Shown: positions 1 through 38,498, numbered from the stretch's first letter. The stretch is DNA of 64,000 nucleotides from an uncultured Alphaproteobacteria bacterium (GCA_903893805.1 CAITNM010000026.1:2542-66541); one strand, 5' to 3'. Translations and numbers: made by a program. Notes: generated by a model from the sequence alone, not told the origin.

Positions 1-1044
1 CGCAACGGTAGTTTTGCCTGCTCCTCCTACCCCCACAAGAGCAACAGTTTGAATGCCATCTTGTTTTTTAAGTTTCATCTCAATCTGATCTATAATCTCA
101 GAACGATTAAGAAGAAGCGAATGCGCAGGGAGCCTTAAATCAGATCGGAAAGAAGTGCCTTCATTATTTTGATTCCAAGAAAAAATTAAAAAAGCACCAC
201 AAAGCCCCGTAACAGCCAATATAATTGCGGTAAGATAGCTTGCCTTTATTTGGCTCATAAAATTTTTTTCTAATTGTTTTTCAGGTAAAGCAACCTCTTG
301 CTGCGTAGAGCCTAAATGTATTGTTTTATATTTTTCTTTAAATTCTGCAGCGACCTTGTTGATATCAAGATGTGGAAGAAGTTTTTTAAGAATTATAAAA
401 AACGAAAAATAATAATCCTCATGTTTTGTACAATTGATGATTTCAAAATCGACAAACTGTTTAGGAATTTCCTGATGATCTTTTTGCAAAAGAAAAAGGA
501 TTTTATTTGAACTATATTTGTGCAGAAAAGAAGAAGTTTCTGCTTCGGACATGGTTTTGGATAAAACAAATATCACATAAGCTTCTGCTTTTTTTTGTAC
601 AGTACGTGATATCGTAATGCCTGCAAGATTTAAATGTGATTTAAGATGGACAGCAAAAGAGTCTGTATCTTTCTCATGGAGTAAAAAGCAAAGATTGTTT
701 TCTTGATTTAATCTTGAAATATCTTTTAGATTTTTTTCAAAAACAGCTTCAACTCGTAAGAGAGCGTAATATTTTCTTAAAAGAAAAACTTTATCGGGGA
801 ATACTTCAATGAAATCGATAATTCCTTCGCGTGTATTCGCTCCACTCTTAGACATGATGTTACGAATATGTGTTTCGACTGTTCTTGAGTTAATAGATAG
901 AAGATAGGCTATTTTGCTTGTTCTTCTTGCACTCAAAATGCACGCAATCACATCAATTTCGCGAGCTGTAAAATGAATATTGCCGATCATCGATAAATGC
1001 TTCAAGTAGAAGTTTTGAGAGAAGAGAATTTGCATTTCTTGCAT
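1..1044 (-). CDS. LuxR-type HTH / TIR-like / TM / NB-ARC (STAND) protein, 3'-truncated by the window edge
   Basis: Hand-translated open frame of 348 codons from ATG 1044, absent from the ORF track because it has no stop in the window. LuxR HTH: FTAREIDVIACILSARRTSKIAYLLSINSRTVETHIRNIMSK. Hydrophobic segment: YLTAIILAVTGLCGAFLIFSW. Then LLNRSEIIDQIEMKLK...TVALVGVGGAGKTTVA (NB-ARC P-loop). Confidence 0.85.
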   Translation of the reverse strand, partial: MQEMQILFSQNFYLKHLSMIGNIHFTAREIDVIACILSARRTSKIAYLLSINSRTVETHIRNIMSKSGANTREGIIDFIEVFPDKVFLLRKYYALLRVEAVFEKNLKDISRLNQENNLCFLLHEKDTDSFAVHLKSHLNLAGITISRTVQKKAEAYVIFVLSKTMSEAETSSFLHKYSSNKILFLLQKDHQEIPKQFVDFEIINCTKHEDYYFSFFIILKKLLPHLDINKVAAEFKEKYKTIHLGSTQQEVALPEKQLEKNFMSQIKASYLTAIILAVTGLCGAFLIFSWNQNNEGTSFRSDLRLPAHSLLLNRSEIIDQIEMKLKKQDGIQTVALVGVGGAGKTTVA

Positions 1045-1240
1045 AAAATAGGGCCTCAGATTTGTTAATTATTTGTGATTTCCATGGAATATCTTTATAG
1101 GATTTAAAGAAAACAAAGTTCTTCTAACCCATTGATATCTACGTATTTATTACGTAGATGTGTGCAATTTATAAAAGAAAAATACAAGCCAAACAAGCTT
1201 TGTTTCAGCGAACCTATTCCTCATAAAGAACATTCTAAAG

Positions 1241-1267
1241 AAATATCCGTATGTTTCACGGATGTTT
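1241..1267. promoter_or_regulatory. Imperfect inverted repeat (candidate operator) between the regulator and the lasso precursors
   Basis: aaatatccgt-atgtttc-acggatgttt: 10-bp arms with 1 mismatch, in the divergent intergenic region. Confidence 0.3.
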
Positions 1268-1382
1268 TTAGCTCTTCAAAACTGAGAGTATTCCCCCAGA
1301 ACCTTAGTCGCTATCCCTCTCTTTCGGATTGAGGTTCTTAAATTTAACTAAGTAGTTTGAGAGGTACATTAAGGAGAAAGAA

Positions 1383-1535
1383 ATGAACGTCACGGAAATT
1401 GAAATTGAAAAAGAAGATGCAGAAATTTGCTCTGAATTCATTATCTCATTAGAAGACAGTGCTTCTACTTTAACTCAAGGACCTTTTGGTAAATTTTCTG
1501 AAGGGCACGGAAGACTTTATGGTGGTGGTTTTTAA
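1383..1535 (+). CDS. Lasso peptide precursor A1 (50 aa); core GPFGKFSEGHGRLYGGGF
   Basis: MNVTEIEIEKEDAEICSEFIISLEDSASTLTQ|GPFGKFSEGHGRLYGGGF. SD aaggag upstream; Thr at -2, Gly1, Glu8; lies upstream of the B/C/D genes. Below the ORF-track length cutoff. Confidence 0.92.
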   Translation: MNVTEIEIEKEDAEICSEFIISLEDSASTLTQGPFGKFSEGHGRLYGGGF

Positions 1536-1586
1536 CCCAATCAAAATAAGGACTTAATGAATAATTTTAAAATTAGGAGATAGAAA

Positions 1587-1733
1587 ATGGGTCTTATTGC
1601 AATTGAAAAAGATCAATTAGATACAGAAGTTCAGGATGATTTTGTTGTGGAATTGGAAGAAAGCGCCTCTGCCCTGACTCAGGGAGTGGGTCAATTTAAG
1701 GGAGAAGGACATAGCTACCACAGATTATGGTAA
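1587..1733 (+). CDS. Lasso peptide precursor A2 (48 aa); core GVGQFKGEGHSYHRLW
   Basis: MGLIAIEKDQLDTEVQDDFVVELEESASALTQ|GVGQFKGEGHSYHRLW. SD aggag upstream; same 32-aa leader length as A1; Thr-2, Gly1, Glu8. Confidence 0.92.
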   Translation: MGLIAIEKDQLDTEVQDDFVVELEESASALTQGVGQFKGEGHSYHRLW

Positions 1734-1755
1734 ATAATTTGATTAAATAAAGAAA

Positions 1756-1790
1756 AGAGACATCATCCTTAATCAAAAAATGATGTCTCT
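1756..1790 (+). terminator. Stem-loop between the precursor genes and the maturation genes
   Basis: Perfect 11-bp inverted repeat agagacatcat / atgatgtctct with a 13-nt loop; no U-tract. Confidence 0.6.
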
Positions 1791-1815
1791 ACTACTAAAC
1801 CTATGAGGATAGAGT

Positions 1816-2517
1816 ATGTATTACCATCTTAATGATCACATTTATGTTACTCGGTTTCGAGATGAATTTATTGTTTTGGATACAAAAAAAGATAAATATA
1901 CCATTTATCTAAAACAGCTTTCAGAATTACTAAGTACAGTTTTTGAAAAAAAAATTTCTTCTGAAAACAAATCCATTGTTAAAAAACTATTAAATGACAA
2001 TGTTATCGTGGCAAAAGATACTCCTTATCCTTTTCATATAAGCATGAACCTTACATCTACTGGGGTATCAAATGCAGATTGGCGCTTACCCTTAAATACT
2101 AAAAAAATTAAAATCAACCCTACTGTTTTGAATGCTCTTTTTACCCTTATAAAAATTAATTTTTATATAAAAGCTAATGGCTTATATTCGGCAATTCACC
2201 TAATTAAAAGATCTAAAAAAAATCAGTCAAAATATACTGTTCCGCAAGAAGAAGATCTTATAAACCTAGCAAACATAGTTAATAAAGCATGCTTGATATA
2301 CCCAACTAGGACAAAATGCTTAGAGTGGGCCATGACCTTTGTTTTGCTGGCTTTAAAACGAAAATGGAAATGTAACCTTGAGATTGGGGTTCAAAATTAT
2401 CCTTTTTTTGCTCATGCATGGGTTGAGTGTGCTGGAAAAGTCGTTATGGATTCACAAGATTTAAGGCAAGGATTAGCTGTGATTTTGAATGAACCTTTTA
2501 GAAAGCTAAAAATATGA
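1816..2517 (+). CDS. Lasso peptide B protein, fused RRE plus transglutaminase-like leader protease (McjB-like)
   Basis: N-terminal RRE-like FRDEFIVLDTKKDKYTI; C-terminal catalytic motifs KCLEWA...LEIGVQNYPFFAHAWVECAGKVVMD (Cys-His-Asp). Confidence 0.92.
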   Translation: MYYHLNDHIYVTRFRDEFIVLDTKKDKYTIYLKQLSELLSTVFEKKISSENKSIVKKLLNDNVIVAKDTPYPFHISMNLTSTGVSNADWRLPLNTKKIKINPTVLNALFTLIKINFYIKANGLYSAIHLIKRSKKNQSKYTVPQEEDLINLANIVNKACLIYPTRTKCLEWAMTFVLLALKRKWKCNLEIGVQNYPFFAHAWVECAGKVVMDSQDLRQGLAVILNEPFRKLKI

Positions 2518-4309
2518 TATATGCAGGGTACATTCACTTTAATGGTGCACAAGATAAAATTAATAAGCTTATAACCGCTATTAATTCGTTAATTCCCACA
2601 AATGCGAAGGTTATAATAAAAAATTCTCTTGTTCTGTGTTATGGCAAAATTTCAAATGAACAAGATATGGATGATATTTGGGAAAATGATACTTCTCTTT
2701 TACTAGGACGCGTCTTTGACAAGAATCATAACGGCTCATTTAAAAAAGAAGATTTTAAAAATTACGCTGATTTATCAAAAAAAGCTGTCTTGGAAAAAAT
2801 TTGGGGTAAGTATGTCTATATTAATTTAAACAACAGCACGCAATTATTTGAAATTGTTCTTGACTCAACTGGACAGCTTCCTTTTTTTATTATCCTTTCC
2901 CGGATGGAAACATTTTATTTTCGTCCGATATAGAAGTTATTTTTAAAGTCCTTTCGCAGAAGCCAGAATATAACCTGGAATATCTATGTTCTTATATTGT
3001 GCATGGTACCAGTAGCTCAATTCAAACGCCTTTTAAGAATATTTATGAGCTACCTCCGGCATGTAGTCTGCAGTTAACAAAAACCAAAAGAACAACAACT
3101 GCTTTTTGGGATCCGCTCAACTCTTACAAAACTTCGAAAAATCAAAAAAAGGACGCTGTAGATGTATTGCAATCCACTTTAAAACCATGGATTGCTCCCT
3201 ATAAGGATATATGTGTCAGTCTTTCAGGTGGGCTTGATTCTTCTGCTCTTGTTTATTGCTTGAAAGATCTTGTGAGGAAAGATCAGTCGTTAAAAGCTTT
3301 AAATTACTTTCACTCTCAAATTCAATCTTCTAACGAATTAGTGCACGCACGCAAAGTTTGTAAAGAGACAAATATTGAACTTATTGAAATTGACGCCTCT
3401 CATTCTTTACCATTTGATCCTCCACATCGAAACCTTCCCCTTATGCCCAATAAACCTTTTCCCGGATTAGTAAGTTTAAGGTGGCTAGAAACTATATTTG
3501 ATAATATTCCACAGACATCTTCTTATACTTTTTTAAGTGGGCATGGAAGTGATCATATATTTATGCGTCCCCCTTCCAAAAAGTCTGTTACTGATTATTT
3601 TCTCGAAAAGGGATTTAAGGGACTTGAAAAAGAATTAAAAAATATTACCCAATTTTACCGCGATCCCATGTTTGCAATTGCTAAAGAAAACTTATTAAGT
3701 TTAATATCTTATTTTTTTGCATCAGATAAAGGGAAAAAGCCTCTTAATAAGACTAATGATGAAACTCCAAACTGGATTAAACAAGAACTACTTCACAAGG
3801 CTTCTCCTAACTATGTTCATCCCATATATGAAGATTTACCAAGAAAAATTATACCAGGAAAATATGATCAGATTGATAATCTATACGAGGGCATTAACTC
3901 TATTCATGTAGAGTTAATGGATCAAATTAGCCCAACTCACTACCCCTTTCTTTATGAGCCAGTTGTTGAGTTTGCCCTTTCTTTTCCAACCTATGAACTC
4001 TTTGATAATGGATATGATCGCTATCCACTAAGAAAAGCTGTTGGAGATCGTTTTAATACAGAGACGGTTTGGAGACGAGATAAAAGCCAAACCACAGGAT
4101 TATTTCAGTTAGGTATTAAACAAAATTTGGAATACATCTTAGAAATTTGTTTAGAGGGGTACTTTGTAAAACAAGGACTCGTTAATAAAGAAGGTCTGCA
4201 TAGAACAATAACTCTTATTGGAAATGGGGATACAAAGCATCTATGGCCTTTTATGTATCTGGCTTCTGTTGAGATTTTCTTAAAGCTTTGGAATGAGAAA
4301 AACTTATGA
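2514..4309 (+). CDS. Lasso cyclase C (asparagine synthetase-like), split by a 1-nt frameshift at the T7 run 2882-2888
   Basis: ORFs 2514..2933 and 2999..4309 join into about 598 aa if one T is added (GQLPFFYYPFPDGNILFSSDIEVIFK...IVHG). ATP-binding SLSGGLDSS; SGHGSDHIF; RYPLRKAV; RRDK. Confidence 0.88.
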
Positions 4310-6072
4310 ACATGAAAATGAACCAGAGAAAGTACTTTAAGTGTATTGGAGAAATTTTCTTTACTACGTTTAAGGATACCAAACTGCGTCTGAATTTTTT
4401 TTCCTCTCTCTTACTTTTAGGGGTTGGAATATTTGCAAATATACTAATACCTATTTTATTAAAAAAAATTGTGGAGCTTTTCTCTTCTCCTAGCAATGCA
4501 ACACTTTCATTGATTTTACTAAGCTATGGCGTGATCTGGATGATCAGTCATTCATCTACGCATCTGAGAGCATTACTAACTCACAGAATTGAACAGCGTA
4601 TTAATTATATTTTAGGAATAAAAGTTATTTCTCACCTTTACAGTCTTCCTCAGAGTTATTTTCTTAATCAAAAACCCGGTGCATTAACAAACATAATTAG
4701 AAGAGCACAACAACATGTTCCCTCGATTGTAATAGGTATATTTTTTCATGTTTTACCAATAGTCATTGAATTTTTGGTTGCTATCATTCTTATCTCAAGT
4801 CTTTATTCATCTCTCTATAGCTCCTTAATAGCTGTCACTTTAATCATTTTCGTGATCTACACTTTCTACTCTATGCATGTAGTTTTAAAACATCGTGAGC
4901 ATGCAAATGAAATAGATAAAAATGCTGATGGTGTTATAGCTGATTGGATCTCTAATTATGAGGCTATTAAGGTTTTTGGAAACCAAGATTTAGCAATTAA
5001 AACGTGCAAAAAAGAGCTAAAAAAACGAGAAATCGCAGAAATTTCATTTGTAACAAAATTTAATATTGTTCATTTAGGACAAACATTAATTTTAGGAATA
5101 GGCCTTACAGCTCTCACCTATTTTGTTGGACAAGGTGTTTTAAGGGGAGAGTTAACAACCGGAGATTTTGTTTTATTTAACGGGTATGTCCTGCAATTTA
5201 TTATTCCAATGAGTGTTTTAGGTCACGTTACACAAGAAATAAAAAAAGCTCTTGTCGATATGAAAGGAATAATGGAATTGTTATTGACGGAAAGCAATGT
5301 CAAAGAAATATCATGTCCTATTCATTTATCAGGATCTCGCTTTCAAATTCACTTTAAAAACGTATCCTTTAAATACAATGAACACCACATTTTTGATAAT
5401 GTGTCATTTAAAATAAATACAGGTGAAACCGTACTCATTGTAGGCCAAACAGGTATTGGAAAATCTACAATCGCCAAGCTTCTTTTAAGATTATACGACC
5501 CTACAAAAGGTCAAATCTTTATCAATCAAGTAAATATAAAACAGCTTTCTTTTCAATCTCTATATGAAACAGTCGGATTGGTACCCCAAGAAGCTTATTT
5601 ATTGAACGATACAGTTAAGAACAATCTTCTTTTTGCAAAACCAGAAGCTTCCTCTCTTGAGATTGAAAGCGCTTTAGACAACGCAATGCTTTTAGGTTTT
5701 ATAAATAAACTCCCTCAGGGAATTAACACGATTGTTGGCGATCGTGGTTTGAAGTTATCTGGTGGAGAAAAACAACGCCTTTCACTTGCACGTATTTTTC
5801 TTAAAAAACCTAAAATTTGTATTTTTGATGAAAGTACAGCCGCTCTTGATGAAAATACTGGCCTCATTATTCAAAACAATATAGAAGCAAATTTACGTGA
5901 AATGACAAAAATTATCATTACTCACCGGCCATCTCTTATTCATAAGGCTAATGCGGTTATCCATCTTGATAAGATGTTCACTTATTCGAAAATACCTTCA
6001 AATAGTTTGCAAAAGAAGGTACCACATTTCAATTCTAAAAATGGAGAAAATCATGCGTACAACACATTTTAA
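4306..6072 (+). CDS. Lasso peptide exporter D, ABCB half-transporter (TMD plus NBD)
   Basis: Multiple TM helices; Walker A GQTGIGKST, signature LSGGEKQR, Walker B CIFDES; ATGA overlap with C. Confidence 0.88.
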   Translation: MNMKMNQRKYFKCIGEIFFTTFKDTKLRLNFFSSLLLLGVGIFANILIPILLKKIVELFSSPSNATLSLILLSYGVIWMISHSSTHLRALLTHRIEQRINYILGIKVISHLYSLPQSYFLNQKPGALTNIIRRAQQHVPSIVIGIFFHVLPIVIEFLVAIILISSLYSSLYSSLIAVTLIIFVIYTFYSMHVVLKHREHANEIDKNADGVIADWISNYEAIKVFGNQDLAIKTCKKELKKREIAEISFVTKFNIVHLGQTLILGIGLTALTYFVGQGVLRGELTTGDFVLFNGYVLQFIIPMSVLGHVTQEIKKALVDMKGIMELLLTESNVKEISCPIHLSGSRFQIHFKNVSFKYNEHHIFDNVSFKINTGETVLIVGQTGIGKSTIAKLLLRLYDPTKGQIFINQVNIKQLSFQSLYETVGLVPQEAYLLNDTVKNNLLFAKPEASSLEIESALDNAMLLGFINKLPQGINTIVGDRGLKLSGGEKQRLSLARIFLKKPKICIFDESTAALDENTGLIIQNNIEANLREMTKIIITHRPSLIHKANAVIHLDKMFTYSKIPSNSLQKKVPHFNSKNGENHAYNTF

Positions 6073-6162
6073 CAGATGTTCAAACCCAAATATTTACTTA
6101 AAAAACAAATAACATTAAAAATGAGAATTTTGTCTGACTGCAAACCCAAAAGAAAGAAAGCT

Positions 6163-8382
6163 ATGTTGCGAAGAATTTGGCAAATTGTACCGTTGTTATG
6201 TACTGGAGTTTTTATATCAGAAGCTTATTCCTCTGATAGAGACCCAGGCATGTTCAAGCCTCCTTGCTATTATAGGGTATTTATACAAGCTATATACGAT
6301 CAAACTGAGCTTTTGGCTAAGATTGGGCCTAGGTTAGATACTCACACTATAAGTGACACTGAGTTAGATGAATTGCTTGTTGCACATTTGTACGCAAGTA
6401 AAGTAGCACAAATAAAACAAAAAATTATGGGGAAACTTAGGGCTAGAATAGCTTTCCTTGAGAGAGAAGCTGATTCTGAGGATAAGAAAGCTTTATTACA
6501 AAGGATTTTAGGGGTACTAACAGGTGCAGGCGGAGTAGCTGCTGGTGGAGTTGCTATGGCTATGTTGCCACTTGGTGTTGGTGATGTTATAGGACCTGCA
6601 CTCATCTTTGGTGGAGTACTCGGCATCAAAGGAGAGCTAGATAATACTCTCAAAGGTTCTTCTCCAGAGGTAAAAAAATTAAGAACAGAGATAGAACTCT
6701 TAGAAGTAGAAGAACAATGTTATCTAGAAGGATTGAGAACCGAAGAAGTCAGTTCTTTTGAGGAAGCCTATGTTAAGAAGAAAGCAAAAATAGGTCTAAC
6801 AAGGCTGCAACAGGCTATAGAAACAAACTTGCTTGATTTGCGCATGCCAGGAAATCCTTACGCTTTTATTTCTAGAGAGTTTTTAGCGCAAGCTTTGTGC
6901 TTACCTATTACTCCCAAAGTGCTATTATCTTCAGACCATGACGCAAGCCTTTTTGCCCTTGGGAATCGTTTTGATCAAGATCCTTTTTTCAGGGTATTTG
7001 ATGCTCCCGTAAAAGAAGCTCTTCGCTCTATAGTATTAAGGATTGCAGCCGATTCTGTCGTGCCAGATGATACCTCTGTTTCCTTAAGAGGGAGATATTC
7101 TTTTCATGGCAGAATTCCTGGCTGCGGTAAAACTGAAGCAGCCAAGCAAATAGCAAGGTTTCTTAAACTTCCATACCATATTGTTACTTTGAGAGATGTG
7201 ACTGAATTAAATGTACAAAACCTTGAAGGCATTAACTTTTATAACCCAGAACCCAATGTAGGATGGTTATTATCTCCTTTGTTAACCCCTGATGAGTCTG
7301 GAAGAACCCATACTAATGCTATTCTAATTATAGATGAAATCGATAAGATCTTAGAAAATATCGGTGCAGCAGGGCCTGCCTTAAATTTTTTACCGCAATA
7401 TTTAGAATCTGGGACAGTTGCAGTAAATAGTCCTTATTTTAGAGATCTTATAAGAATAAATCGTATGACGATTATCTTGACCGGTAATAAGCCGCTTACT
7501 CACGCCGCTGTGCTTTCAAGACTTACTCGCTCAATAGAATTCCCTGCTTTTACTATTGCCCAGATGATGCCAATTTTAAAAGCACATCTTAAAGCACTAA
7601 AAGAGGCTAGGAGGATTCCAGCAGAGTTTTTACTGTCTATTGAACTGCCAACTCTAGAGCACCCCTTTAGGATAACTGCGGATATGAATTTAGCCTCTCT
7701 ACACGCGGAATATGGTGCCGGAGTCATTTATACACCTGCACAACCTATAGAAATACCAGTAGGACCTCCTGCAGAAGAACTACCTATGGATGACGCTAAT
7801 GGATTCTCTATTAGGACTGCCAAAGCAGCTCTTGAAGGAGTAATGGAAATATTTAAGGCAAGCCTTATTCTAAGATCTCAAGCTAGCTTTACCCGTGGAT
7901 TAGAGGCGATACAAGCAAACAATAGAGATGCAGCGCTTCACGCTTACATAGAGGCTGCTATTGGAGGACATGCAGAAGCTGCTTGTAAGCTAGGAGCATT
8001 ACTCAAGGCAGCACCTGCTACAGAAACGTACGCAAAGAAATGGTACATGCGAGGGTGGGATCGGGGATCTTTAAAAGCAGCTTACGATCTTGCACTAACA
8101 TTAAAGGACACCGAGATTGATAATGCAATAAGTTGGGCCCAAAGAGCAGCGGATGTGCGCTCAGGGGTACCATATTCAACTGAAGAAATTGTAACTCAGA
8201 GAATCTCATCTTACTTATTGGGAGAGCTATTTGAAGGAGACGGACAATCAGAGTCAGCAAAGTTTTGGTTTATTCAAGCGGCACAAAAAGGACATCCCTT
8301 TGCTCAACGTATGGCAGACCGCTTAATGTTGCGTGAGCAAAAAGTAAAGTCTGGCAAACTAATGTTTGCTGATGAAAGTTAA
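6163..8382 (+). CDS. Signal-peptide protein with an AAA+ ATPase domain and C-terminal Sel1-like repeats
   Basis: Likely start MLRRIWQIVPLLCTGVFISEAYS (track starts at 6076). Gly-rich hydrophobic hairpin; Walker A GRIPGCGKT, Walker B ILIIDEIDK, sensor-1 LTGN, Arg finger VLSR; Sel1-like AAIGGHAEAACKLG and QAAQKGHPFAQ. Confidence 0.7.
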   Translation: MLRRIWQIVPLLCTGVFISEAYSSDRDPGMFKPPCYYRVFIQAIYDQTELLAKIGPRLDTHTISDTELDELLVAHLYASKVAQIKQKIMGKLRARIAFLEREADSEDKKALLQRILGVLTGAGGVAAGGVAMAMLPLGVGDVIGPALIFGGVLGIKGELDNTLKGSSPEVKKLRTEIELLEVEEQCYLEGLRTEEVSSFEEAYVKKKAKIGLTRLQQAIETNLLDLRMPGNPYAFISREFLAQALCLPITPKVLLSSDHDASLFALGNRFDQDPFFRVFDAPVKEALRSIVLRIAADSVVPDDTSVSLRGRYSFHGRIPGCGKTEAAKQIARFLKLPYHIVTLRDVTELNVQNLEGINFYNPEPNVGWLLSPLLTPDESGRTHTNAILIIDEIDKILENIGAAGPALNFLPQYLESGTVAVNSPYFRDLIRINRMTIILTGNKPLTHAAVLSRLTRSIEFPAFTIAQMMPILKAHLKALKEARRIPAEFLLSIELPTLEHPFRITADMNLASLHAEYGAGVIYTPAQPIEIPVGPPAEELPMDDANGFSIRTAKAALEGVMEIFKASLILRSQASFTRGLEAIQANNRDAALHAYIEAAIGGHAEAACKLGALLKAAPATETYAKKWYMRGWDRGSLKAAYDLALTLKDTEIDNAISWAQRAADVRSGVPYSTEEIVTQRISSYLLGELFEGDGQSESAKFWFIQAAQKGHPFAQRMADRLMLREQKVKSGKLMFADES

Positions 8383-8405
8383 TAGTAACTGTATAGGAGT
8401 TTAAA

Positions 8406-9257
8406 ATGAGATTATTACATATTGTTTTTTATAGAGGATTATTTTTCTTTACCCTGCCCGTATGTCTCTGGGCAGCAGTGCATAGCGAAGTTAGCTTAGC
8501 TTATCACAGTACGGCAAATAGTGCTTATAATGGATGCAAAGTTACTTTCCAAGTATATGAGGGAACTGAAGAAGCAAAAAAGCGAGTATGGACGGGACAG
8601 TTAGGCTTTTACGGAGAAGGGTTACCCTTGGTAAACACTTCCATATTATCTCGTAAACAAGTTGATCCCGAAATAAAATTAAGATATGTCTCTAATGATG
8701 CACGCTACAAAGCTTCGTTCGAAACAGTCCCTCCCCTCCGTTCAATGTCTCCTGACGGATTTACTTATGAAGAAACTGCGTGCATGGAAGATAGCATTAT
8801 TGCGGGCAATATGATCACATGGAGTCTTAATAATCACGCTATAAGTGTTCAAGATGTTGTTGACACAGTAAATAACTTAAAAGACGGAGGACGTTTTCCG
8901 AAGTACAAACTTTATGGATACGATTGGAATGATAACGTTGCAAACTGTGTGACATTTTCTTGTCGTTTCTTAAGAGCTTTTGGAGTTAATATTGATGCGT
9001 GCACAGAACTCACACCATGGCTAAAACCAACAAGAGGTTCAGGGTTGTCTTGGGCGGGCTATTATATATTCGCTTTTGGTTGGACACATGATCACGTACG
9101 TTTGCGTAACGCAGTATTATCCATCGCTCAGTATCATAATAATGTTAGGTGGAATAGAGGAGATGTACAGAGTGGTGCTCCAAGATTTGCACTTAAGAGT
9201 ATTGAAGATGTGCTGCCAGGAGCAGATATAAGCTCTGTTAGAGCTTATATACAATGA
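8406..9257 (+). CDS. Secreted hypothetical protein with a possible papain-like/NlpC-P60 catalytic Cys
   Basis: Signal-like N-terminus; KYKLYGYDWNDNVANCVTFSCRFL and candidate His residues (AYHS, NNHA, THDHV). Confidence 0.55.
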   Translation: MRLLHIVFYRGLFFFTLPVCLWAAVHSEVSLAYHSTANSAYNGCKVTFQVYEGTEEAKKRVWTGQLGFYGEGLPLVNTSILSRKQVDPEIKLRYVSNDARYKASFETVPPLRSMSPDGFTYEETACMEDSIIAGNMITWSLNNHAISVQDVVDTVNNLKDGGRFPKYKLYGYDWNDNVANCVTFSCRFLRAFGVNIDACTELTPWLKPTRGSGLSWAGYYIFAFGWTHDHVRLRNAVLSIAQYHNNVRWNRGDVQSGAPRFALKSIEDVLPGADISSVRAYIQ

Positions 9258-9272
9258 TGAAGGAGATCTATT

Positions 9273-10223
9273 ATGAATAGTTTTGTCAAAATTTTCATTG
9301 CAGGAGGAGTTTTTTGTTTATTTCTCTTCAACTCCAAAGCAGTATCGTGTGGGGAAGAGTTTGTTTTTCCGTTTGCTGACGATGACCTTGTAAGTCAAAA
9401 TAGTCGCCAAGTTTTAGAGATGCAACCAGTAAGAAATTCTTCTTCATCATCTACTCTTCCTAGTCGTTGTGCTTTTCCAATCGATACTGCAACTGCTTTA
9501 CCAGAAGCATCAGCAATTTTAGCTGAGAGAAATAAGGTACGATTCCCCATACCTCAAGCCGCTCTCGCTGGTTTTCTGCCTTTACTAGAGATGGGGGAAG
9601 ATGTTATTTTTGAAGCCTTTAGGTTTTCTGCATCTTGTAGTTCTGAGTTTAAATTTAAGAGATGTGAGAGAGATGGTAGCGTCTTTTTTATCAATCCTGG
9701 ATGCAATATATCGCTTGAAGATAACTATAACAGCTATCAATATTTTATTGTAGCTGCGAATCGAGAAGAAGCTGCACATGCATTGAACGAAGTAGAAAAA
9801 TTTAAAAGAGAAAAATGTCTTACCTTACTTAACCAAGTAAAGATAGTATTATTTAATCTATACGATAGCAAAATGCCGACAACTCCTTTCAACGATCTAT
9901 ATAGCATAGTGCCCAAGAACAACATCGTTAGTTTTATTTTAGATGAAAATTTTATGGGTAAGTGGGTCCTTCTTAAAGATTTATGCCTTAATTTTCATTG
10001 GAAGAATTGGCCTGGGATAAGAATTACAGTCCCTTTATCAAATCGTAGATTATTTACACAAGAAATACTTAGTGATGTGTATAAAAGAGTATTAAGACAG
10101 TGGCATTCGATAATAGATGCAATAGATCTTGGTATTTTTGAAAATGAAAGTGAAGCTGCAGAGGGTATGTTAGATGTTATTGGAAATCTTCCACCATCTG
10201 CAAGCAGGTGGAATATTTTCTAG
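9273..10223 (+). CDS. Secreted hypothetical protein
   Basis: 316-aa ORF, SD aaggag, hydrophobic signal-like N-terminus; no family recognised. Confidence 0.6.
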   Translation: MNSFVKIFIAGGVFCLFLFNSKAVSCGEEFVFPFADDDLVSQNSRQVLEMQPVRNSSSSSTLPSRCAFPIDTATALPEASAILAERNKVRFPIPQAALAGFLPLLEMGEDVIFEAFRFSASCSSEFKFKRCERDGSVFFINPGCNISLEDNYNSYQYFIVAANREEAAHALNEVEKFKREKCLTLLNQVKIVLFNLYDSKMPTTPFNDLYSIVPKNNIVSFILDENFMGKWVLLKDLCLNFHWKNWPGIRITVPLSNRRLFTQEILSDVYKRVLRQWHSIIDAIDLGIFENESEAAEGMLDVIGNLPPSASRWNIF

Positions 10224-10981
10224 AATCTGTGATCTAACGTAAAACCACGGGGATTATATAGATTGGACAGCAATTTTGCTATAAACAAGAGGGGGGAGGG
10301 TTCTTTGGTTACTGCACGGTCTAGGATGTCTCGAGCATCTAAGCCATCAGGTGCTTTGTCGGCTAAATCCCATTTATGGGGCAAGGTTGTGGGCAAATTG
10401 ACGATTTTAACTTCAACAATTTTACCTTCTTGATTACTCTGATTTTCCAGAATAGTTGTAATCTTAGTGGCTGCATTAAGTCCCGGCTGATCATGATCTG
10501 GCCAAATCGTAACAGACCGATCTTTTAAAGTGCTCCAATCAGACTTTTGAACAGCACCACTTCCACCAGACCATGTCACTACTGCGTGATCTTTGAATAG
10601 CTCTCTCGCTGCTTCGCAGGTTTTTTCGCCCTCAACGATCAGCACAGGTGCATTCGGCTTTGCTTTAAGTTGATCCAATCCATACAAAGGACGATCATTA
10701 CCAAATCCTTGCCATCGCCACTGTTTTTCACCCTTGTCATTTTGACAATAGGTAAGCGTAGGCGTGATTTTATGACCGCTCTTATCCTCTAACCGCACCA
10801 CATACCCTAAGACATTGCTATCTGCCTCTTTGTAGGCATATCGAGCAACCTCAATTTTTCCTTTAAGCATCTAACTGAGGCTTTTTTCTGCTTTTAAATC
10901 AACAGGCGTTGCAAGAGCAGGGAACAGAGGTGTCCAGTCCTATTTAGATTGGTTGATTTTTACGATCCGTAATATGATCAT
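10220..10981 (-). pseudogene. Toprim-domain primase-like gene of mobile elements, with two in-frame TAG stops
   Basis: Toprim motifs PVLIVEGEKT...VTWSGGS...IWPDHDQPG. The frame extends 5' of the called start 10870 through TAG at 10871-73 and 10940-42 (K*DWTPLFP...SLS*M) to an ATG at 10981, 1 nt after the PLD stop. Confidence 0.7.
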
Positions 10982-10982
10982 A

Positions 10983-11609
10983 TCATTTGGGTTTGCCAAG
11001 TGTTTTTTGAGAATGGAAGGATTTGGAAACGTTCCAACGTTCCTCAAAGTACACGGTATATCTCTTGGCGACTTCTTGAGCGTTAATAAACACGAGATTT
11101 TCTGCATTGTTAAACTCTGCTGAGTGTGACCAATTGTATGAGCCTGTTATTGTTTGTAGGTTGTCTATGATCAAGACCTTATTGTGAGCAATTTTGACTG
11201 AATGATCGAACCTCACGTCTAAGCGGTTGTTAAGCAAGATTTGAATGACCTCTTTTGAGTACTTTTGATATTGTTGGCTGTGATCAAGAACAATACGAAC
11301 GTTTACACCTCTTTTTTTAGCCTGGATCAACGCTTGAGTAATAGGCTTGCTTGTAAAAGAATACCCCAACAGCAAAATGCTTGATTTGGAGTTATCGATG
11401 GATTTTATTACCTTAGGCAAACAAGACTGACCGGGAGTGAAGCAAACATCCAATGATACAGGCACTGCTGCTATTGAAACTTTTGGAGTAGAGGAGAATG
11501 GAATGTTTTCGATAAAGAGTGGATAAGACAAGAGCCCAGCGACAAAAATACTAACCGCTACTATGAGTTTGTTAGGTTTAAATCTATATCCTTGTTTTTT
11601 GTGCTTCAT
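10983..11609 (-). CDS. Phospholipase D-family nuclease (single HKD motif; Nuc/rickettsial Pld-like)
   Basis: AHNKVLIIDN...TGSYNWSHSAEFNNAEN; CFTP and YSFTS motifs; N-terminal anchor. Start probably 11609 (track starts at 11651). Confidence 0.9.
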   Translation of the reverse strand: MKHKKQGYRFKPNKLIVAVSIFVAGLLSYPLFIENIPFSSTPKVSIAAVPVSLDVCFTPGQSCLPKVIKSIDNSKSSILLLGYSFTSKPITQALIQAKKRGVNVRIVLDHSQQYQKYSKEVIQILLNNRLDVRFDHSVKIAHNKVLIIDNLQTITGSYNWSHSAEFNNAENLVFINAQEVAKRYTVYFEERWNVSKSFHSQKTLGKPK

Positions 11610-11754
11610 GATCTTTAAGGAGGCGGATGCCGCGTTGTTTAAAATTCCCAAGAGAGTTTGTGACGAGCATTATGGTTGTTACTGAGAGCATTTCATTCTG
11701 TGTTTTGAGAACCTGAGCGAGTTGGCTTGTCTCGATATTTTTTTGCAGTATCAT
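11584..11754 (-). CDS. Small hypothetical ORF (56 aa)
   Basis: MILQKNIETSQLAQVLKTQNEMLSV...; weak SD-like sequence upstream; overlaps the PLD start. Confidence 0.3.
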   Translation of the reverse strand: MILQKNIETSQLAQVLKTQNEMLSVTTIMLVTNSLGNFKQRGIRLLKDHEAQKTRI

Positions 11755-11914
11755 TCGTTACTCGCCCCTAGAGAACACACAAACATAAAAACTAAAAAAC
11801 AACCCATAAGATAAAAGAAAGAGAGTCTAAATCTCGTTCCCTAACGTGTACTTGCTCAACTGGATTGGATCATATTGCGATAGTGTTATCAAGTGTCATT
11901 TTGCCAATTTTGCT

Positions 11915-11952
11915 AAATGCGCACTTATGCGGTGTGACAAAGTGCGTTACAC
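11915..11952 (-). other. MOBQ-family oriT-like site
   Basis: Minus strand: GTGTAAC-gcacttt-GTCACAC (inverted repeat), then CGCA, then TAAGTGCG|CATT. This matches the IR plus TAAGTGCG|CCCT architecture of RSF1010/pSC101/pSK41-type oriTs. Confidence 0.65.
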
Positions 11953-11988
11953 TTTTTACACCACTTATGTTACCTACGGCGTTTATTT

Positions 11989-12282
11989 ATGACATCAAGA
12001 ATGCAAGAGTATCGTGACAAAAAAAGACAAGAAGGATTTGTACAAGTAAGAGTTTGAGTGCCAGAAGAACACGAATATTTTATCAAGAATATCGCTAAAG
12101 AGTGCAGACCAAGTGTCCCACTCAAAATCCCCGAGCGTTATGGCAGACCAGCTAAGCCATCACAAATCCGTCTTGCTCAAGCTCTTGCGGCCTCCAGGGG
12201 TAAAGAGCCACCTGAACACCTCTATGATTACCACATTAGTTTGTCAGCTTGGATGTGGGGGCTCGGTGGCAGACCGAAATGA
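11989..12282 (+). pseudogene. Small RHH/MobC- or DUF3018-like gene with an in-frame TGA
   Basis: MTSRMQEYRDKKRQEGFVQVRV*VPEEHEYFIK; TGA at 12055-57 falls where Trp of a V-x-V-W-V-P motif is expected. Confidence 0.6.
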
Positions 12283-12357
12283 TTGTTAAGCTGAGAAGCT
12301 TTCTTCATTAAATTCCTTTATTTCATATTTATTTTTTTCTCAATGCGCCTCCATATT

Positions 12358-12531
12358 TGCCGTATTTACCGTCCAACCGTCCACAACCGCAGTTTTGCTA
12401 ATGTTTTTTGGACGAGTGGACGAATCATTGTCTGAGGTGGACGGTATCGCAGATGTATTGATGGACGAATACTGAAGGCTTGAATGTCCTTATTTACCTA
12501 ACCAATGGACGGCTGGACGGTAAATACGGCA
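12358..12531. repeat. 26-bp inverted repeat enclosing TGGACG iteron-like hexamers
   Basis: Arms 12358-12383 and 12506-12531 with 1 mismatch. TGGACG at 12409, 12417, 12438, 12462, 12506, 12514; CGTCCA at 12370, 12378. Confidence 0.85.
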
Positions 12532-12854
12532 TTTTCAAGGAGGCTAGAAGAAACATTTATATTATATCGTTTCCACGATTCTTCAAATATGTGTTTATCA
12601 AACCCTTTTCTTTGTATGCCGCCAATTTCCATGTTCTTCGTATGGATTTGATAGGGAGAAAGAAGCCTACTTAACTGACGCGGGGTAATTCTTTTATCGA
12701 TCCCCCGAAAATTATACACGGACCAGGGACTTTCTTCGTCCTCACAAAGATAGCTAATTAGGTCAACGGATTCACGCACAGGATCTAAATCCAATCGTAC
12801 GCACGTACATAACTCAAGAATTTTTAAATATAGGAAACTCGTTAGGCTAGTCAA
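12498..12854 (-). pseudogene. DUF3631-like C-terminal fragment of a phage-satellite/ICE replication protein
   Basis: DLISYLCEDEESPWSVYN...ITPRQLSRLLSPYQIHTKNMEIGGIQRKGF...FEESWKRY; N-terminal part missing. Confidence 0.65.
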
Positions 12855-12969
12855 AACTAGGTGCTTGTAAAAACGGTTGTTTTATTCGTAAATGATTTTT
12901 TTTTGTCTATGAAAAAAGGAATTTCAGTTGAAATGGCACTTCAGAAATTTTTTGTGTCTTCTTCCATAA

Positions 12970-12988
12970 GTATACCCAGGGTATACCC
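12970..12988. repeat. GTATACCC direct repeat with 11-bp period; integrase arm-site-like
   Basis: gtataccc-agg-gtataccc, about 50 bp from the tRNA-fMet 3' end. Confidence 0.5.
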
Positions 12989-13036
12989 GACAGAATTATA
13001 GCAGAAGAAGGTGATGGCTGAAAGCCTTACGTGAAT

Positions 13037-13113
<77 letters not shown>

Positions 13114-38341: not shown

Positions 38342-38498
38342 AAAAGGTGCCGCCAGCGCCGTGGAGGGGATGATCCTCTCGTGGCTAAAATGCCAAGTGG
38401 GCGCCATATAACAAAGCCACGGCTCTGCCAGAGACAGCTCCCAAGGATGTAAATTGAGCCAAGGGATTAAACTCACACGAACGCTGCCGCACCAGGAG
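38342..38498 (-). ncRNA. ssrS: 6S RNA
   Basis: GC-rich closing stem ggtgcggcagcg / cgctggcggcacc; alphaproteobacterial 6S-like segments GGAGCTGTC, GGCGCCCAC, GGATC; about 150-160 nt; ends approximate. Confidence 0.7.

Follow-up and report, generated by a model that had tools for sequence, protein, structure and literature searches.

A lasso-peptide gene cluster of the amoeba-symbiont family, with a frameshifted cyclase gene, on a tRNA-Met island of a probable alphaproteobacterial endosymbiont

The closest described relatives of the locus reported here belong to bacteria that live inside protists. In Candidatus Amoebophilus asiaticus, the genes Aasi_0899-0902 were identified as a putative lasso-peptide cluster in 2010, and a lasso cluster of this kind was noted again in 2022 (Schmitz-Esser 2010; PMC8831229; PMC3423634). 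This cluster is flanked by insertion sequence (IS) elements (PMC3423634), it is transcribed and upregulated late in the infection cycle, and homologs with 50-61% identity are present in Paracaedibacter and Odyssella (PMC8831229). Here we describe a cluster of this family in a stretch of 64,000 nucleotides from an uncultured Alphaproteobacteria bacterium (GCA_903893805.1, CAITNM010000026.1:2542-66541), hereafter called the window, in which positions 1383-6072 hold two precursor genes (A1 and A2), a protease gene (B), a cyclase gene in two pieces (C) and an exporter gene (D), all of them on the plus strand in the list of open reading frames (ORFs). We conclude, with a probability of roughly three in four, that this is a complete-looking amoeba-symbiont lasso module carried on a tRNA-Met island, that its cyclase is broken by a run of seven T (T7), and that the strain is likely to be non-producing.

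The lasso module and its closest relatives

First, the cluster agrees with those of the amoeba symbionts in sequence, layout and setting. An intact ortholog of C (P0121) is 60% identical to Aasi_0901 (P0200) of Candidatus Amoebophilus asiaticus at 100% coverage, 63% identical to its counterpart in Candidatus Paracaedibacter symbiosus and 59% identical to that of Candidatus Odyssella thessalonicensis; for B, identity reaches 64% with P. symbiosus and 60% with Odyssella. One locus in P. symbiosus and two in Odyssella begin with a divergent regulator of about 1100 aa on the minus strand, which combines a LuxR-type helix-turn-helix (HTH), NB-ARC and TPR domains, and continue on the plus strand with A, A, B, C (about 597 aa) and D, a layout with tandem precursors that recurs in the window. 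Their leaders end in SASTLTQ/G or SASSLTQ/G (the slash marks the cleavage site), and across ten or more relatives the leader end takes the form SA(S/T)xLT(Q/R)/G, with SASTITA/G in one Odyssella copy, while the core peptides of these relatives are unrelated in sequence except for Gly1 and Glu8 or Glu9. The likeness extends to a mobile context, which consists of IS elements in Amoebophilus and of a tRNA island here, and probably to the life style of the hosts, given that Amoebophilus, Paracaedibacter and Odyssella are intracellular in protists and the organism of the window is a probable endosymbiont. What differs are the core peptides, the frameshift in the cyclase gene, the integration at tRNA-Met instead of IS flanks, and the host family, which is new for this type of cluster and in which one of the 15 species genomes carries it. 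On its sequence, the cluster is a member of the amoeba-symbiont lasso family typified by Aasi_0899-0902 and is not new in kind. The original prediction had placed it in a lineage with few known ribosomally synthesised and post-translationally modified peptides (RiPPs); this is hard to maintain for a cluster family that has been described since 2010, that occurs (judged by B) in 8 of the 62 species genomes of the order, and for which B has more than 200 metagenomic homologs with 55-68% identity, mostly labelled Alphaproteobacteria.

The domain content of the genes confirms that the region is a lasso-peptide biosynthetic gene cluster of the order A1-A2-B-C-D with an exporter, as had been proposed, and the co-orientation of the genes and the ATGA overlaps of B with C (2514-2517) and of C with D (4306-4309) are read directly from the DNA. 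Shine-Dalgarno-like AGGAG/GAGGA motifs stand upstream of A1, A2 and B, and a promoter scan returned fewer sites than expected by chance. The divergent gene on the other side of A1 encodes a regulator with a LuxR-type HTH (GerE, 36.9 bits) followed by an NB-ARC/STAND NTPase domain with a P-loop and then by TPR; in identical contigs that hold the full-length gene, NB-ARC and TPR_12 are found. A domain search of the flanking ORFs and of the rest of the island gave no match to an S9 isopeptidase or to a TonB-dependent receptor, in agreement with the absence of both noted earlier.

Both precursors have acidic leaders of 32 aa. The leader of A1 ends in SASTLTQ and is followed by an 18-aa core, GPFGKFSEGHGRLYGGGF, and that of A2 ends in SASALTQ and is followed by a 16-aa core, GVGQFKGEGHSYHRLW; the cleavage contexts read SASTLTQ/GPFGKFSE8 for A1 and SASALTQ/GVGQFKGE8 for A2. 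Lasso precursors are recognised by a Thr at the penultimate position of the leader, by Gly, Ala, Ser or Cys as core residue 1, and by Asp or Glu at core positions 7-9, and A1 and A2 both possess Thr at leader position -2, Gly1 and Glu8. Because Glu8 is the sole acidic residue of each core, a Gly1-Glu8 ring is the only one possible, and we predict this ring for both products, with computed dehydrated masses of 1850.885 Da (A1) and 1838.896 Da (A2). Among related strains, the one designated L005 has a wholly different A2 core and the one designated L004 has A2 as its single precursor, A1 having been lost. Both of these strains conserve the stem-loop that lies between A2 and B (-16.5 kcal/mol, z -2.4), which may attenuate or stabilise the transcript of the precursors; no U-tract is present 3' of it on the plus strand.

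B matches the lasso B2 protease model NF033537 (lasso_biosyn_B2) with 94.4 bits against a cut-off of 33, as the original prediction had anticipated, and PF13471 with 90.1 bits over residues 108-224, and its putative catalytic triad of C168, H200 and D212 is invariant among 30 homologs including McjB. That a leader-binding part is fused to this protease, as had also been proposed, is supported by an alignment with McjB (24% identity, residues 11-223, E 3e-13), since this alignment begins as early as residue 11. In the AlphaFold model of B, which was built from 15 sequences and has a mean predicted local distance difference test score (pLDDT) of 60.6, residues 9-60 form three strands and then helices (beta-beta-beta-alpha-alpha), the topology expected of a RiPP recognition element (RRE), at a pLDDT of about 55 for the N-terminus. 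We found no Pfam PqqD match in the N-terminus and no significant Foldseek match of the model to the PDB; among the weak fold matches, the RRE of the lasso system protein TbiB1 had the highest probability, at a non-significant E of 0.8. We therefore describe B as a B2 transglutaminase-like Cys protease whose N-terminal part is plausibly RRE-like; of the proposed fusion, the protease is well founded and the recognition element remains at that level.

C contains an asparagine synthetase domain (PF00733, 67.7 bits against a cut-off of 21) and matches the lasso cyclase models NF033535 (80.9 bits) and NF033561 (70.8 bits), so that the expected cyclase matches were obtained, although both are partial. 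D combines ABC_membrane (70.6 bits) with ABC_tran (103.5 bits), and its best solved relatives in a PDB search are the Atm1/ABCB exporters (E 1e-88). A specifically McjD-like nature of D was ruled out, as Atm1/ABCB proteins dominate the search and McjD falls outside the best 60 PDB matches.

Second, we compared the cluster with microcin J25, whose type it had been assigned to. The assignment holds for gene content: mcjABCD of E. coli plasmids likewise comprises a precursor gene, B in fused form, C with its likeness to Asn synthetase, and D as the ABC exporter, with no isopeptidase, and microcin J25 has the Gly1-Glu8 ring that is predicted here. The suggested resemblance of the leaders is also borne out, as the plasmid-encoded McjA leader ends in ...KKQASQLTK/G and those of the window in SAS(T/A)LTQ/G, both of the form AS-x-LT-x/G; a literature search for the McjA leader string gave no match. 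The assignment does not extend to close homology. Identity amounts to 24% between B and McjB, 25% between C and McjC and 25% between D and McjD (E 7e-44), and D is nearer to Atm1/ABCB than to McjD. Moreover, mcjA is divergent from mcjBCD whereas the genes of the window are all co-oriented, the window has two precursors, and its type of C is about 85 aa longer. By these comparisons the cluster resembles microcin J25 in gene content and is not a close member of the microcin J25 family. The E. coli plasmid pRHB14-C23_3 was discarded as the microcin J25 reference, as it carries a different lasso cluster of the order A-C-B-D, and the true mcjABCD was used in its place. The enterobacterial lasso cluster on E. 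coli plasmid CP057792.1 (L037, 35152-39263), of the order A-C-B-D, has a 62-aa precursor and is not microcin J25.

The astexin and caulosegnin clusters of free-living alphaproteobacteria are class II lasso systems, often with several precursors, which typically include isopeptidase and TonB-dependent receptor genes and have no dedicated exporter. The cluster of the window shares with them that it is a class II lasso system with several precursors in an alphaproteobacterium, and differs from them in having an exporter and in the lack of isopeptidase and receptor matches on its island.

The broken reading frame of the cyclase

Third, this strain does not have an intact Asn-synthetase-like lasso cyclase. 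C is split into ORFs of 139 and 436 aa in different frames, and the frame switches at the T7 run, which is one base shorter than the T8 of intact relatives. The contigs of L004 and L005, whose B proteins are 95% and 91% identical to B of the window, have T8 and an uninterrupted C of 598 aa, and the extra T is present in all of the strains from three further studies (wastewater, watershed and an unlabelled metagenome) that are 92-98% identical to the window; T8 and an intact C are found in five of the five other strains of the species complex that cover the site. No start codon or Shine-Dalgarno site for separate translation of the C-terminal part was found.

The T7 lesion is real and strain-specific. 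Split gene calls for C recur in at least four ENA assemblies, Logan contigs from three runs match the window exactly across T7 at a depth of 14-35x, and the assembly collection lists the truncated product of 139 aa in 57 of its indexed blocks. We regard it as extremely improbable that the frameshift arose as an error of sequencing or assembly in a strain whose real cyclase is intact. Homopolymers are error-prone on some platforms and most of the T7 evidence may come from one study; however, the Logan runs were assembled independently of one another, neither they nor the ENA assemblies show a variant at this site, the truncated product is widely indexed, and T8 was recovered from related strains assembled in the same way. 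The frameshift probably inactivates the cyclase, and this strain would most likely make little or no mature lasso peptide, which renders the earlier view of a cluster making new peptides doubtful for the strain at hand. The ratio of nonsynonymous to synonymous substitution rates (dN/dS) between the window and its intact relatives is 0.15-0.21 for the long C-terminal ORF of C and 0.13-0.20 for B, and it lies at 0.13-0.24 across most comparisons of B and C. Given this purifying selection in C and the integrity of all other genes of the cluster, we conclude that the lesion is recent.

An alternative view of the same run is that the T7 allele is not dead, either because slippage of the polymerase or the ribosome restores the frame or because T7 and T8 form a phase-variable switch, in which case lasso output would be low or switchable. 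The run fits such a mechanism in that T TTT TTT is a perfect heptamer of the X XXY YYZ type, at which a -1 shift yields the protein of the relatives, and the intact remainder of the cluster, the low dN/dS of C and the abundance of the T7 allele in its population would all be consistent with a functional gene. Homopolymer slippage is known to rescue frameshifted genes in some endosymbionts; seven T are, however, short for efficient transcriptional slippage. In addition, the only downstream hairpin, 12 nt past the run, does not stand out from shuffled sequence (z -0.69), and the T run itself is not conserved, with TTTTTT in 5 of the 11 loci that encode the same PFFYYP. No T8 occurs in the contigs of T7 samples, although contigs hide rare variants. 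Taken together, we consider slippage or phase variation to be quite unlikely. The single metatranscriptome in which the cluster appears, from a related strain, contains A1 (on a contig that spans 1368-1507) and part of B only, and stops short of the T run.

The frameshift could also be the first step in the loss of the whole cluster by reductive evolution, in a lineage to which the peptides no longer matter. Fragments of mobile-element genes on the same island, the loss of A1 in L004 and an internal stop codon in the B homolog of a metagenome-assembled genome (MAG) labelled Parachlamydiales (L033:6001-6861), which possibly represents a further copy of the cluster in decay, are in line with such a course. 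We believe that it is unlikely nevertheless, as the intact C of all other strains of the species complex that cover the site, the dN/dS values of B and C, and the detection of A1 and B from a related strain in the metatranscriptome each argue against decay. Our preferred reading thus remains that of a complete-looking module in which one strain has recently lost its cyclase.

The tRNA-Met island and its host

Fourth, several features support horizontal acquisition of the cluster on a tRNA-Met island, as the original prediction had suggested for this AT-rich cluster. The cluster has a GC content of 32.8%, compared with 39.0% for the genome, and falls within the lowest 0.4% of 4.7-kb genome segments, and GC amounts to 36.5% in the part of the island that lies in the window and to 38.9% in the remainder of the window. 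B is present in this genome only among the 15 of the family. In most congeners, homology to the region of tRNA-Met, tRNA-Trp and secE starts exactly at the 3' end of tRNA-Met. A 52-bp copy of the 3' half of this tRNA, itself an incomplete tRNA, stands on another contig of the same assembly directly after Sua5 (G000:C34:47626-47677) and is followed by low-GC DNA to the contig end, and one congener (G005) shows the empty site, with Sua5 directly beside tRNA-Met. From the homology break, the 52-bp repeat and the empty site we conclude that the lasso module resides on an island that measures 18.3 kb or more and extends from C34:47678 to the end of C34 and, beyond an assembly gap, over C26:1-15576 (corresponding to window positions 1-13031).

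The island has further content. Directly after D lies an AAA+/Sel1-like gene for a 768-aa protein (6076-8382, plus strand), whose match to AAA ATPase is weak at 31 bits; within the family of 15 this AAA+ gene is unique to the present genome, and it stands beside the cluster in L004 and L005 and does not follow D in P. symbiosus. Two orphan ORFs on the plus strand (8406-9257, 283 aa, and 9273-10223, 316 aa) have hydrophobic N-termini and no Pfam or NCBIfam match, and both accompany the island in related strains. The DNA from these cargo genes to tRNA-Met contains remnants of mobile elements on the minus strand, namely Toprim/DUF6371 (10220-10870), a nuclease of the PLD family (10983-11651) and a fragment with DUF3631 (12498-12854). 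In another congener, a separate insertion of about 9 kb occupies this tRNA-Met site, together with a second copy of the 52-bp 3' half (G007:C1:98741-108968), and the tRNA gene seems to be a hotspot of integration within the genus. Elsewhere in the window, a 6S RNA gene is located at 38343-38495 on the minus strand (54.9 bits; gathering score 46.4).

The host is probably an intracellular endosymbiont, in agreement with the earlier proposal. Its genome comprises 1.57 Mb in 47 contigs, is rated 100% complete and encodes TLC ATP/ADP translocases (G000:C26:129053-130522, 577 bits, and G000:C13:1220-2527), of which none was found in 14 control genomes, and its RpoB is 72% identical to those of Paracaedibacter and Odyssella, members of the same order. 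The organism is known only from metagenomes, which represent lake, freshwater, biofilm, wastewater, groundwater and cave samples.

Several points weigh against the reading that we prefer. The assignment of an RRE draws on a weak alignment to McjB, on a topology modelled at a pLDDT of 60.6 and on the non-significant match to TbiB1, and is itself weak. The T7 assemblies may share one study or one lake: T7 is confirmed solely within the study that is its best holder, contig L001 represents the same strain as the window, from which it differs by scaffold gaps only, and contigs from other studies that are at least 99% identical (X5 and X7) do not span the T run. Some cyclase could still arise through slippage. 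No integrase was found on the island, and its two parts are separated by the gap between C34 and C26, whose ends do not overlap. Finally, the position of the ring and its threading are inferred from the known lasso mechanism.

Table 1. Positions of the lasso cluster, the frameshift site and the surrounding features in the window
Feature	Position	Strand	Basis or remark
Regulator, N-terminal 348 aa of about 1106 aa	1..1044	-	divergent; extends past window start
Precursor A1, 50 aa	1383..1535	+	ORF, Shine-Dalgarno site
Precursor A2, 48 aa	1587..1733	+	ORF, Shine-Dalgarno site
Stem-loop, 11-bp stem	1756..1790		folding; A2-B intergenic
B, 233 aa	1816..2517	+	NF033537, PF13471
C, N-terminal fragment, 139 aa	2514..2933	+	stop at 2931-2933, out of frame past T run
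T7 homopolymer, frameshift site	2882..2888	+	alignment to relatives with one extra T
C, C-terminal part, 436-aa ORF, -1 frame	2999..4309	+	PP-loop SGGLDS, Asn-synthetase-like ATP-binding domain
D, half-size ABC exporter, 588 aa	4306..6072	+	ABC_membrane and ABC_tran
Genomic island, portion within window	1..13031		low GC, homology break at tRNA-Met
tRNA-Met, integration site	13037..13113	-	52-bp repeat of 3' half at G000:C34:47626-47677

Spread and possible role of the family

Finally, our comparisons suggest that clusters of this family reach beyond the Alphaproteobacteria. In a scan of species-representative genomes, homologs were found in MAGs labelled Parachlamydiaceae, Rhabdochlamydiaceae, Parachlamydiales, Verrucomicrobia and Gammaproteobacteria, and RpoB of these MAGs is 52-57% identical, as against 64-72%, hence these are non-alphaproteobacterial genomes. 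In the tree of B, L004 and L005 fall into the clade of the window, whose sister is the P. symbiosus group (support 95/85); the copy from a gammaproteobacterial MAG nests with an Odyssella copy (100/100), and the Parachlamydiaceae copy stands among alphaproteobacterial copies with weak support. Errors of MAG binning may play a part in these results. Four chlamydial or verrucomicrobial loci (L025, L026, L033 and L021) encode one precursor each, whose leader is basic and begins MKNIFKK..., in contrast to the acidic leader of the alphaproteobacterial loci; their cores are nearly identical and end in PTRPRPNAC, and the cleavage motif SA(T/S)xLTQ/G is kept. In the open literature we found no link between lasso peptides and these chlamydial families, although such a link may have been reported elsewhere.

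If the module follows the known lasso mechanism, the N-terminal part of B would bind the leader through its SA(S/T)xLTQ end with Thr at position -2, and the Cys-His-Asp protease of B2 would cleave before Gly1. An intact C would then adenylate the side chain of Glu8 with ATP and join it to the amine of Gly1, to give a ring of eight residues that is threaded by the tail, and D would export the peptide and, in its presumed role, protect the producer. The divergent LuxR-STAND regulator would control expression of the cluster.

To our knowledge, obligate intracellular bacteria have so far yielded no characterised lasso peptide. The combination of a conserved leader with hypervariable cores points to a possible role in antagonism, which could consist in competition with co-resident bacteria or in action on the protist host. 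A bolder proposal, which we put forward as speculative and think improbable, is that the family represents a horizontally traded weapon or host effector of an 'intracellular arena', in which unrelated endosymbionts of protists (Paracaedibacterales, Amoebophilus, Parachlamydiaceae, Rhabdochlamydiaceae and the hosts represented by the Verrucomicrobia and Gammaproteobacteria MAGs) rapidly swap core cassettes and, in this strain, the T run acts as an on/off switch. If this were true, the cassettes would be adapted to particular competitors or to the host.

On our preferred reading of a recently disabled cyclase in an otherwise complete-looking module, the strain of the window is a poor choice for product discovery, and its cluster represents no new kind of system. 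What the window adds to the family is a clean example of recent acquisition, in the form of the tRNA-Met island and the empty site in a congener, together with a natural pair of broken and intact cyclase alleles. The family as a whole is widespread, with very variable cores on a conserved leader, and would be a reasonable place to look for new lasso scaffolds; it also marks gene exchange among bacteria that share protist hosts.

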